Of a stretch of DNA of 64,000 nt, positions 8,381 through 49,813 are shown piece by piece. The notes beneath the pieces are model-generated. The model saw nothing but the letters and a program-made list of their open reading frames with translations. It made no database searches and was not told the origin of the DNA. This DNA comes from Escherichia phage nieznany, in sequence record NC_052659.1; one strand, given 5' to 3'. Position numbers and translations under genes: made by a program. The first letter of the stretch is position 1. Each line of letters starts with the position of its first letter.

Positions 8381-8440
8381 TCTTGACTTGCGGGATTAGT
8401 TATGATATTATGCCTACCTACTTAATGAGGTAGGCTTTTT
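8381..8440 (+). promoter_or_regulatory. sigma70-like promoter (TTGACT-17-TATTAT) followed by stem-loop GCCTACCT..AGGTAGGC + T-tract
   Basis: Seen in sequence; same promoter plus stem-loop architecture as the minus-strand cassettes at 50-57 kb. Confidence 0.45.
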
Positions 8441-8450
8441 AGGAGGCGTT

Positions 8451-8660
8451 ATGAAAAAGATTCTGACAGTCGTTCTTTTAGCTTTTAGTTTCACAGTAGC
8501 AGCAGGTCAAATTACTTTAATCTTGTCTGATTCTGAAGTTAATGGCAATACAAAATATTGCTACTATTCTAACGCTAACCAAGATGAAGTTATAGCAATC
8601 CCGAAAAGTCGTCAATGTCCGTATACTAAAACATTCTCAACAGAGGATGACGATGAATAA
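8451..8660 (+). CDS. small secreted protein (signal peptide)
   Basis: N-terminal MKKILTVVLLAFSFTVAAG hydrophobic signal; 69 aa. Confidence 0.45.
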   Translation: MKKILTVVLLAFSFTVAAGQITLILSDSEVNGNTKYCYYSNANQDEVIAIPKSRQCPYTKTFSTEDDDE

Positions 8661-8672
8661 TTAGGGGGAAAT

Positions 8673-9791
8673 ATTAGCGGTTATATTTTAATTAAACCTG
8701 AAGATCTTCATTTATATGTCAACGAAGAAACAATAGCTGCAATTGATTATGATCAGATCGCTTTCCAAGCAGCGTCTGCATTAGAGAAAAGAACAATCAT
8801 TGCGAAGCACATCCCTTCAGGTGCTCAAAAGGAATTTAAAAATAAGACAGAGTTTTGGGGTAAAAGCAAGACTAAAATTGGAGGTTGGCTAGGAGATACA
8901 AATGCAGAAAGAGCCTCCAAAAACAAACGTCCCTTCACAAAGGAAGAGTTCGAAATCATTGATAAGCAATACCCGCCAGAAGATATCGGACACACCTTCC
9001 AAGCAGCTAAAACAAAAGTCTTAGGTATTCTAAAACATCTACGTTTAGAAAAATATTGCGGAGTTATTGGCGTAGGAAAAACTTTCAGACACGCCTTCAA
9101 AATGCCTGTAGAATATAAATCTGAACGATTAGATATCAAACCACTTCAGCTTTCAGAAACCAAAGATTATCTTGTGGAGTTCCACAATGGTGATGTTGTT
9201 ACTGTAATAGAAGCTGATGATGAGTTAGAGAAGTATGGTTTCCAAGGTTATAAAGATTATAAAAGGACGGGTAAATTTTCTTATATCGTAGTATCTATAG
9301 ATAAAGATAGTTTACATACTCCTAGTATCCTTTTTAATTTCTACAAAGAGGATGGAGTATTTAAAAATCCAGATATAATTCTTATTGACGAGTCTATTGG
9401 CGATATATGGATCGTAGATAAAGGTAAAAAGAAAGAAGTTAAAGGTTGGGGCAGTTACTGGTTAGCATATCAGATGCTAATGGGAGATAAAACAGATAGT
9501 ATCCGACCTTATCAAGATTTTGATATTAAGTTCGGAGATATTACTTGTTTTAATCTTCTTTCAGCTTGTAAAACTCAAGCAGAACTTTTCCAAACAGTTA
9601 AAGATACTTACTACTCATGGTTCCCAGAGGGTGTTAATTTTACTTCTTGGGATGGAGAAGAAGTCCATATGACAACAGATGAATGGATAGAAACAATTTT
9701 CCAGTTGGTATACATGAAACGCTGGGATAATGACGATACAACATTTGAGAGTATGCTTCAGTCATACATCTCACAACAGGAGGCAGAGTGA
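8673..9791 (+). CDS. rnh: RNase H / 5'-3' exonuclease (FEN family, T4 rnh-like); start codon uncertain (no in-frame ATG/GTG/TTG between 8661 and 9101)
   Basis: IAAIDYDQIAF, IEADDEL, VVSIDKD, LMGDKTDSI match the FEN/T4 RNase H motifs recalled from memory; N-terminal catalytic region lies upstream of the first ATG (9102); ATT at 8673 after GGGGG is a candidate start. Confidence 0.55.
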   Translation: MSGYILIKPEDLHLYVNEETIAAIDYDQIAFQAASALEKRTIIAKHIPSGAQKEFKNKTEFWGKSKTKIGGWLGDTNAERASKNKRPFTKEEFEIIDKQYPPEDIGHTFQAAKTKVLGILKHLRLEKYCGVIGVGKTFRHAFKMPVEYKSERLDIKPLQLSETKDYLVEFHNGDVVTVIEADDELEKYGFQGYKDYKRTGKFSYIVVSIDKDSLHTPSILFNFYKEDGVFKNPDIILIDESIGDIWIVDKGKKKEVKGWGSYWLAYQMLMGDKTDSIRPYQDFDIKFGDITCFNLLSACKTQAELFQTVKDTYYSWFPEGVNFTSWDGEEVHMTTDEWIETIFQLVYMKRWDNDDTTFESMLQSYISQQEAE

Positions 9792-10747
9792 GCAGATTAA
9801 CAGAAGAGCAGAAAGCAGATATCCTTAGTATGAGTGCAGAGGGTATGTCTTCTCGTAATATTGCAGCAATTGTTTTAGGTAGTCCAACAAGAAAAAGCAC
9901 AGTGAACGATTTCCTTGCACGATTTGGAGCAAGTAAACAAGAGCCAGTTAAAAAGAAACAACCCGTTATTAAAATTATTGATGTTGAAACTGCACCAGAG
10001 ATTGCATATACTTTCCGTCGATTCAAAGCCTTCATTTCTCCAGATCAAGTAATTCGTAGGGGTTATTTGTTATCTTACTCTTCTGCTGACCTATATACTG
10101 GTGAAGTGGAAGGTAAGAACTTGTCTTCTTATCCTCTTTTTGATATTGATCATACAGATGATTGGGAGCTTTGCCAAGATCTTTGGAACCTTCTGAATGA
10201 GGCAGATGTAGTTGTGGCACACAACGGGTATAAGTTTGACCGTGCATACATTAACCAACGATTTGCATATCACGATATGGCTCCTCCTTCTAATTATGTA
10301 GTTGTTGATACATTGAAGGCAGCTAAGAAACAATTTGCACTTCCTTCCAACTCCCTTAAAGAAATGGGAGCATATTTCGAAACAGAAAGTGAAAAACTGG
10401 ATAACGAGGGGTTCCCTTTATGGAAAGCATGTTGTGAAGGTGATCGTGATGCTTTTGAACGTATGCAGATTTACAATGATGGTGATGTTGTTTCACTCCG
10501 TGATTTGTATATGAAAATCCTTCCGTGGATTCCACAGCATCCTAACTTATCCGCTTATTACCCAGATGAGAAGGTCCGTTGTTCTCGTTGTGGCAGTGAT
10601 CACGTTCACGTTGTTACTGGTAAACAATACCACACTGCGGTAAGTTCTTTCGATATCATTCGTTGTGAATCTTGCGGAGGTTTGTCACGTAGTAGAGCAA
10701 ACACCAGATCCAAGGATAAACGAGCAGCAACTATCATTGGAATCTAA
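9788..10747 (+). CDS. DnaQ-like (DEDD) 3'-5' exonuclease with N-terminal HTH-like region and C-terminal Cys4 cluster
   Basis: Exo motifs IIDVETA, VAHNGYKFD, YNDGD; CSRCG...CESCGG; GTG start overlapping rnh stop. Confidence 0.5.
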   Translation: MSRLTEEQKADILSMSAEGMSSRNIAAIVLGSPTRKSTVNDFLARFGASKQEPVKKKQPVIKIIDVETAPEIAYTFRRFKAFISPDQVIRRGYLLSYSSADLYTGEVEGKNLSSYPLFDIDHTDDWELCQDLWNLLNEADVVVAHNGYKFDRAYINQRFAYHDMAPPSNYVVVDTLKAAKKQFALPSNSLKEMGAYFETESEKLDNEGFPLWKACCEGDRDAFERMQIYNDGDVVSLRDLYMKILPWIPQHPNLSAYYPDEKVRCSRCGSDHVHVVTGKQYHTAVSSFDIIRCESCGGLSRSRANTRSKDKRAATIIGI

Positions 10748-48132: not shown

Positions 48133-49780
48133 ATTATGCTCCTTTGTAGATTATGTTGGTGCGTTCACACTCTGCCACCAGCAAGCCAAGCTTTGTAAAA
48201 CTTCATTAGACGTAAGCTACTCAACGGAACATTTTTACTCTCTTGCATGATAATCTCCTCTCATCGTTAGCCATCTTTCATGGCAATCATCAATCACCAA
48301 CATCATACGATCAATCTTAGGGAATTACAATCGAATTATCATAGGGGATTCCTATCAATTATCCCCTATATACCGATTATTTTTGACACCCCACTCTTGT
48401 ATAAAAAGTAACCCAAAATATCTACGGGGAGAGATTATTTCGGGACACCCTGTTTCATGGCAATCATGGCAAGAATATCTAATAGAATCAATATCATATG
48501 GCAAAAATCATGGCGCATACGTAAGAAGTGCTTAACGCGAATTTTCGGGCCGTCAGGTCCACGCAGCGACAATTCCCAAATATCATGCGAATGAGAATAA
48601 TTATCATTCGTATTCAATGACTTATGCAAAGCTCATGCCAACGTAGCGACAAGGTGGGCCACTTGATTATAAATCACACAAACACTTATTTATCAATGGT
48701 TTGGCAACCTCATCATATGACGGAACAATGTCAACTAATCCCGCTCATGACAAGCAGACTATTATTTATATGAGAATGATTATTATTTAAACGTTTATTA
48801 ATATAAAAACTAGAATAAATCAAGATTATTCTGATTTTATTTACGTTTAAGAGAAGGTGCTCAACATATCGCGTAGCGATAGTATTCGCCCCCCAAAAGA
48901 TTAGCCTTTATTTTCTTGTATGTTTATACACTATGTGCACACTATGCAACCTGTCGCTATTCGCTCATGTTGCTACGTGCAATTATTCATCTTGCTAATG
49001 ATGATCACACTGAACGATAGTGATAACTCTTGTAATTACCACAATGATTATTGTTATTGCGCTAATGTTATGATCTTGGTAATTACATATAATGCTAATA
49101 ATAAGCCAGCGCAATAAGTGTAAGCGTCATTACGCTTGCAATTATTGCAAGCTACGCAGTAACAAGAAATAACCGTCACCGATGGTTATGATTGTTGGGG
49201 TGTAGTTGGCTTATTATTAGCTCGCTATGTGTCCGGCATAGCGTGCTAATGATGACTCTGTGAATGATTAGTTTTGTAATGATTTCATTCAGGCACTATT
49301 TTGCTAATAGTTATTATTTTAATGGTTTCGTTTGTTATTGTTCGTTAGTTGGTTGTTTTGTCATGTTATCGTTATTTTGCTTAGTATTCATCATGGTTTG
49401 ATTGTTTGTCGTTATCAATCATCTTGCTATTATTCCTTTGATTATGATTAGTTTGCTTATTGTTTTATGTTGTTTGTTGGTTAGTTGTTGCGAACTATTA
49501 TCAACATTATAGTTATGCACTTATATTGCATAGATAAACATGGATAGATGATAATGGTTATCATTGCACCAGAAAGGAGGTAAAAGGGTGTTTTTGATGG
49601 TTTGTTGTTGGTTGTTGATCGATTTTAACCGCTTTAAATGGCTCTCTAACAGCCTGTAACCCTGGGATGTATGGTTATTCGTTTGCTGGTTGATTAGCTC
49701 GATACCACGATTTATTCAGTTTTGTTCTGTGTCGGTTTTTCATAGGCGAAAGCTATCAACATTGTTCGGGCAAAAAGAAA
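48133..49780. other. 1.65 kb noncoding, repeat-rich, strand-compositionally skewed region (G/T-rich tract 49300-49520; repeated GCTAAT(G/A)(A/T)T and CGTAGCGAC motifs)
   Basis: No convincing ORF; low-complexity GT-skew; at least five GCTAATGATGA-like copies (about 48991, 49058, 49092, 49243, 49303) and CGTAGCGAC-like copies in both orientations. Confidence 0.5.
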
Positions 49781-49797
49781 GGGCGCTTGGTGCGCCC
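49781..49797 (-). terminator. terminator hairpin GGGCGCACCAAGCGCCC followed by U-tract on minus strand (same element repeated at 52132)
   Basis: Identical 17-nt hairpin with AAAGAAA/TTTCTTT flanks at 49781 and 52132. Confidence 0.55.
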
Positions 49798-49813
49798 CTT
49801 GTTTTGTTGTCGA

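Follow-up and report, generated by a model that had tools for sequence, protein, structure and literature searches.

The FEN-family nuclease encoded at positions 8661–9791 of the 64,000-nucleotide stretch of Escherichia phage nieznany DNA analysed here (sequence record NC_052659.1; this whole stretch is referred to as the window) is very probably translated as a full-length, 372-residue protein from a near-cognate ATT codon at 8673, behind the Shine-Dalgarno element GGGGG at 8664–8668. We place the start there on the combined strength of the codons aligned with 8673 in relatives, the starts used by outgroups, relatives in which a TAA bounds the frame, the onset of codon periodicity and the Shine-Dalgarno scores. 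The features of the locus are listed in Table 1.

Table 1. Features of the nuclease locus, in window coordinates.
Feature	Position	Strand	Basis
Upstream 69-aa ORF	8451–8660	+	ORF list; phrog_4641 match, E 7e-27
Shine-Dalgarno element GGGGG	8664–8668	+	−9.3 kcal/mol predicted duplex with 16S rRNA 3′ end
Proposed initiation codon ATT (AUU)	8673–8675	+	4 nt after last G of Shine-Dalgarno; aligned codons; ESCO13 CDS start
Probable full CDS, FEN / 5′-3′ exonuclease family nuclease, 372 aa + TGA	8673–9791	+	
Asp25 codon, motif IAAIDYDQ; first invariant acidic residue, end of β1	8745–8747	+	Alignments A1, A2; model
Family-specific insert, ~residues 39–100 (H..SG..F.N.TEFWG...GGWL...F.I)	8787–8972	+	Alignment A1; model
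First ATG (Met144); start in tuntematon, phAPEC8 and iGC_PHA_EC001 records	9102–9104	+	No Shine-Dalgarno; Leu in distant relatives
EADD motif (E180, A181, D182, D183), central active-site acidic cluster	9210–9221	+	Alignments A1, A2
Downstream gene, DNA polymerase exonuclease subunit	9788–10747	+	ORF list; phrog_403 match, E 7e-107

Translated on the plus strand, the frame 8661–9791 comprises 376 sense codons and a stop. The in-frame TAA directly 5′ of it (8658–8660) ends the 69-residue upstream ORF, and its earliest canonical start is the ATG at 9102 (codon 148). A first-pass annotation had described this frame as opening right after the TAA and running for 147 codons without a canonical start, and a codon-by-codon check confirmed the description, with no ATG, GTG or TTG at any of the 147 codons of 8661–9101. 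The local layout is GGGGG (8664–8668), AAAT (8669–8672) and ATT (8673–8675). Of the window's 130 stop-to-stop frames that reach 90 codons or more, the nuclease frame has by far the longest start-less lead; the runners-up, with 109 and 69 codons, both lie in minus-strand frames of 93–109 codons that we judge unlikely to be genes. The remaining long start-less leads, considered as candidates for other start-less genes in the window, look like non-coding shadows, and of the window's genes that follow a gap none besides the nuclease has more than 13 open codons 5′ of its first canonical start. Elsewhere in the window, a segment of ~1.7 kb (48133–49813) carries only short ORFs (64–77 amino acids) separated by gaps of 290–696 nt, which is unusual for a dense genome, and this segment may be a regulatory or non-coding region.

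The nuclease belongs to a widespread phage family. A tblastn search with the whole frame returned 1,207 phage records, 899 of them covering at least 80% of the frame, with identity falling to about 25% in phages of Pseudomonas, Vibrio and Rheinheimera. We aligned family members in two sets (A1, 26 sequences; A2, 38 sequences), in which D25, R139, Y148, K149, E180, D182, D210, K211, D212, Q267, D272 and D275 do not vary, and D183 varies little if at all. The conserved carboxylates of the FEN superfamily are present among these (D25, E180, D182, D183, D210, D212, D272 and D275), including the first aspartate at the end of β1, and they would correspond residue by residue to the metal ligands of the T5 and T4 enzymes.

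An AlphaFold2 model of the 372-residue protein shows a single domain, with a mean pLDDT of 95.6 and a pTM of 0.89. In the model, residues 16–25 form the first core strand, with D25 at its end, followed by a helix (residues 26–37), and the whole has a PIN-like α/β nuclease core with FEN topology. Foldseek matched the model with a probability of 1.0 to a plastid 5′-3′ exonuclease, E. coli ExoIX and the T5 D15 flap endonuclease. By sequence, the nuclease falls in phrog_107 (‘exonuclease’), and 11 of the 38 aligned relatives match PF02739, the 5′-3′ exonuclease N-terminal domain, with a best E of 1.7e-6. The window protein had no Pfam match at E ≤ 1, its full, N-terminal and C-terminal pieces giving nothing meaningful, and against PDB sequences both phmmer with the protein and hmmsearch with the 26-sequence profile returned chance matches only. 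Because sequence searches with the window protein failed, family membership rests on the fold and on the relatives' PF02739 matches; the model supports assignment to the FEN family, and structure-specific 5′ nuclease activity is predicted.

The protein had at first been named a ‘FEN-family RNase H’. Its place in the FEN family stands, on the Foldseek and PF02739 matches, but T4-type RNase H does not: T4 RNase H (rnh, PDB 1tfr) is no nearer to the protein than other enzymes of the FEN family are, and no sequence-level match between the two was detected. ‘RNase H’ is a borrowed and loose name. Unlike T5 D15, E. coli ExoIX (Xni), mycobacterial FenA and the plastid 5′-3′ exonuclease, all of the PF02739 family, the window protein carries a ~60-residue insert after the first strand-helix unit and extra β-hairpins at about residues 235–259, giving it about 372 residues compared with about 250–300 in those enzymes. 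The insert (~residues 39–100) follows β1/α1, ahead of the next core strand; most family members conserve it, some Pseudomonas-phage relatives have a shortened version, and it is modelled as a β-hairpin and helices with pLDDT mostly >88. From Asp25 to EADD (E180–D183) the protein spans about 155 residues, while the corresponding span in T4 RNase H is about 111 residues; an insertion of ~50 residues relative to T4 RNase H, as proposed in the first-pass annotation, is therefore roughly right and coincides with this conserved block.

The same annotation had placed the conserved N-terminal catalytic region ahead of 9102, and indeed the invariant Asp25 lies 119 codons 5′ of that ATG. According to the model, a form beginning at 9102 would be without Asp25, strand 16–25 and two further core strands. 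As far as sequence comparison can tell, the 143 start-less codons are real coding sequence, and the N-terminal region that they encode is essential to the nuclease.

To place the start, we gathered the orthologous locus from GenBank relatives and from contigs of IMG/VR, metagenomes and Logan, and tabulated 33 distinct sequences. Across the 27 distinct sequences of the clade that includes this phage, in which protein identity drops to about 46–50%, the codon aligned with 8673 is ATT (12 sequences), ATC (9), ATA (5) or CTG (1). A GGAGG-type site stands 3–5 nt before the non-canonical start in 26/26 distinct relatives, with predicted energies of −9.3 to −12.9 kcal/mol; at this position the present phage has GGGGG, and most relatives have GGAGG. 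In the outgroups, exactly the same aligned codon is ATG (L005, which is Raoultella phage Ro1, L018 and L059) or TTG (L006, which is the rV5-like phage pangalan, L058 and L068), and the outgroup N-termini MGYP(VV)... and LSREYP(LI)... align with ISGYILI... of this phage. An alignment of orthologues, the check that had been suggested for locating the N-terminus, thus sets the outgroup starts on 8673 and the beginning of the conserved domain 5′ of 9102.

In four relatives (L030, L044, L045 and L046) an in-frame TAA abuts the aligned ATC on its 5′ side, and the next canonical codon comes 35–142 codons further on, past D25. Because the TAA directly precedes the ATC, initiation in these sequences is not further upstream. 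The onset of coding constraint was read from 14 closer relatives. In the first 24 codons past the start, the first, second and third codon positions have entropies of 0.35, 0.14 and 1.02 bits, and third positions are variable in 24/24 codons; 5′ of the start there is no codon periodicity, and the GGAGG core alone is conserved. The Shine-Dalgarno scores point to the same codon: a site as strong as that before 8673 (−9.3 kcal/mol) is reached at only 1.7% of window positions, and the site upstream of ATG 9102 scores +0.4 kcal/mol, that is, no Shine-Dalgarno element. The ATG at 9102 is not credible as an initiation site.

The gene therefore shows what is looked for in genes with near-cognate starts: no canonical start 5′ of the needed residues, a Shine-Dalgarno element at working distance that is conserved among relatives, and a coding signature that sets in at the codon right after 8673. 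The first-pass annotation had offered the ATT four nucleotides after GGGGG as a candidate, and the aligned codons, the conserved Shine-Dalgarno element and the periodicity all support it. Isoleucine or leucine at the aligned position would also be expected of a conserved hydrophobic coding residue, and therefore the argument for the start rests on the closed upstream frame and the Shine-Dalgarno element. Only 4 nt separate the last G from the ATT, which places this spacer among the shorter of those usually seen, and in three relatives (L026, L049 and L067) the exact start is ambiguous by one position because two ATH codons stand side by side.

In the best-surviving alternative, translation would start at another non-canonical codon slightly downstream, ATT 8685 or 8691 in the Y-I-L-I stretch, with Asp25 still included. 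Both codons are in frame, and ATH codons recur at their positions in relatives, but we consider initiation there improbable. Their Shine-Dalgarno scores, −5.5 and −2.4 kcal/mol, are weak next to the −9.3 of 8673, GGGGG lies 16–22 nt away from them, the ATG and TTG starts of the outgroups align with 8673 and not with either of them, and coding periodicity is already present between 8673 and 8691.

It is very unlikely that the 229-residue ORF from ATG 9102 is the real and sole product, with the upstream 441 nt a decayed remnant, although this is the form that public annotation favours. In the records of tuntematon, phAPEC8 and iGC_PHA_EC001, 9102–9791 alone is annotated, as a 229-residue ‘putative exonuclease’ or ‘RNaseH’, leaving a 441-nt gap, and this form is far commoner in protein databases, with its variant P0077 found on 385 contigs. 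Against it, the 143 lead codons stay open under strong purifying selection down to 26–30% protein identity, they encode the invariant Asp25 along with three of the core strands in what is confidently modelled as one domain, and the ATG at 9102 has no ribosome-binding site and is replaced by a leucine codon in more distant relatives. The earlier suggestion of an N-terminally truncated, inactive protein falls to the same open, selected lead with its invariant Asp25.

Records go astray over this region in further ways. In phAPEC8, a 40-residue ‘hypothetical protein’ (phAPEC8_00121; window 8902–9024, +) is called within the nuclease coding region in a different frame; it is almost certainly spurious and fills the apparent gap. 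In phi92 (L004, 697–1731), the GTG from which gp085 is annotated falls within the catalytic DYDQ motif, and the record notes ‘No RBS identified; weak Prodigal statistics’. The vB_Eco_PATM record (L065) has an antisense ORF (1322–1546, −) labelled ‘putative exonuclease’ over the N-terminal part, together with a shortened ORF (1579–2439, +). Only the curated ESCO13 record (KX552041.2; AQM50955.1 / RefSeq YP_009786567.1) among these opens a 372-residue CDS at the ATT that corresponds to window 8673, and it also carries a ribosome-binding-site feature; its protein differs from that of this phage at one residue, and the 372-residue form is UniRef100_A0A1Q1N971, with 12 Phapecoctavirus members. The ATT start of the nuclease gene is itself not new, being already in the ESCO13 GenBank and RefSeq records, where it is unexplained; the ESCO13 genome announcement makes no comment on the start (PMC5374246). 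In the library that we searched, we found no paper on the ATT start of this gene or on a clade-wide weak start, and no proteomic or ribosome-profiling data set from these phages. In practical terms, the inspected records and the commonest database form carry the nuclease without its catalytic N-terminus or misplaced, and gene callers limited to ATG, GTG and TTG will go on repeating the truncation.

A fusion of the nuclease with the upstream 69-residue ORF, through readthrough of the TAA at 8658 or a programmed frameshift, is highly improbable. The two share a frame in this phage with one TAA between them, and a protein database holds a 444-residue ‘fusion’ protein, P0005. As a natural fusion, P0005 (L023, 1501–2835) is an artefact: the DNA has TAG where the protein shows Q, which reflects recoded-stop gene calling. 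Across relatives the nuclease start is offset from the frame of the upstream stop by 0, 1 or 2, which is at odds with a fusion, as are the two successive in-frame stops of L030-type sequences and the different upstream gene in L066 and L067 (a methyltransferase in L066). The upstream protein, of unknown function (phrog_4641), ends in an acidic tail (...EDDDE), and its phi92 homologue, gp086, has a SignalP-annotated signal peptide, which makes joining it to a replication nuclease implausible.

The preferred reading, separate translation from 8673, leaves 12 nt between the upstream TAA and the nuclease start. In relatives the upstream ORF ends 8–18 nt before the near-cognate start; the small ORF adjoins the nuclease gene in most of them, and its stop is often a TAG within a TAGGAGG ribosome-binding site. 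At the other end of the gene, the downstream GTG start (9788) overlaps the nuclease TGA (9789–9791) by 4 nt as GTGA, a junction typical of coupled genes, which makes this run of three genes tightly linked in translation. In the Vequintavirinae relatives Ro1 (L005, 1–604) and pangalan (L006, 309–617), an HNH homing endonuclease or ‘transposase-like’ gene takes the place of the small ORF directly 5′ of the nuclease, and the junction is therefore a mobile-gene insertion site.

That a sequencing or assembly error erased a canonical start, as had also been considered at first, has next to no probability, with 63 near-identical GenBank records over the start region and independent metagenome, IMG/VR and Logan contigs that have ATT, ATC, ATA or CTG at the aligned codon. 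Over 8640–8720 (81 nt), 52 phage records are at least 99% identical and 11 more are 95–99% identical. The region as a whole is 100% identical to Escherichia phage tuntematon (MN850618; Phapecoctavirus, Stephanstirmvirinae) and 95–100% identical to 62 other phAPEC8-like records, and metagenome and IMG/VR contigs have the same start-less arrangement. Sequencing error, pseudogene and readthrough are all rejected. As to the tuntematon record, window position 8400 equals MN850618 position 110849, so the window would pass the end of that 150,473-bp linear record by about 16 kb; it either wraps the record's ends or represents a differently permuted copy.

For translation from 8673, we propose that the AUU is read by initiator tRNA as fMet and that GGGGG, four bases 5′ of it, positions the ribosome. 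Initiation may also be fed, by translational coupling, from ribosomes that finish the upstream ORF, which here ends 12 nt away. A phage tRNA was considered as an explanation for the unusual initiation and set aside; there are no tRNA genes in the window, and the idea also sits badly with the range of start codons found in relatives. The predicted fold of 8630–8730 was not significant (z = −1.0), with no structural regulator evident at the start.

In E. coli, AUU, AUC, AUA and CUG initiate at 1–2% of the level of AUG, with AUG, GUG and UUG giving 10–100% and all other codons falling below the near-cognates (bioRxiv 10.1101/063800). The four start codons of the clade are exactly those four near-cognates. 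In a different reporter system, AUU was 6–8 times weaker than AUG (PMC3592434). The confirmed AUU-initiated genes of E. coli are infC and pcnB only (bioRxiv 10.1101/063800); the weak start limits translation of pcnB and makes infC sensitive to IF3 (cited in PMC3592434 and bioRxiv 10.1101/063800), and the infC start lies 3 nt after the upstream cistron's stop, with re-initiation and de novo initiation contributing about equally (PMC3592434). Like both of these genes, the nuclease gene has a near-cognate AUU behind a Shine-Dalgarno element, and like infC it starts just after the stop of an upstream cistron. Unlike them, it encodes a phage replication and repair nuclease, not a host regulator, with no autoregulatory logic evident, and its start codon, known here from sequences, drifts among AUU, AUC, AUA and CUG across the clade in place of a fixed AUU.

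Selection could keep the weak codon because it holds translation of the nuclease low or IF3-sensitive, as in infC and pcnB. Fitch parsimony on a neighbour-joining tree counted 11 start-codon changes over all 33 sequences; by our reading of the tree, about 7–8 of these fall inside the clade and 0 lead to ATG, GTG or TTG, an outcome with a chance probability of roughly 0.1, which is not decisive. Selection is supported in that the near-cognate start persisted through deep divergence, though one mutation would make it ATG. On these grounds, translation of the nuclease may deliberately be kept low, perhaps with sensitivity to IF3 and with partial coupling to the upstream ORF.

The clade in question comprises Phapecoctavirus, Justusliebigvirus and uncultured relatives down to about 46–50% protein identity. 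We suggest tentatively that, across this deep clade of large virulent enterobacterial phages, selection actively keeps a near-cognate start that is never AUG, GUG or UUG, always accompanied by a Shine-Dalgarno element close to perfect and by an upstream cistron whose end lies 8–18 nt away, and that the arrangement might serve as a conserved translational throttle, or a switch sensitive to IF3, for a nuclease that is potentially toxic and possibly sensed by host defences. That it avoids the toxicity or the host sensing of the nuclease is speculation. No new mechanism is involved, as AUU initiation is a known kind of exception; the value lies in what the sequences indicate to be a solid annotation correction, for the inspected records and the commonest database form, and in a near-cognate start whose conservation in nature is well documented. 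If the tentative reading is true, infC/pcnB-type control would have its first counterpart in phages. The persistence of the weak codon behind a strong ribosome-binding site offers a natural, easily testable case for asking whether phages choose start codons to limit or time the expression of a nuclease.
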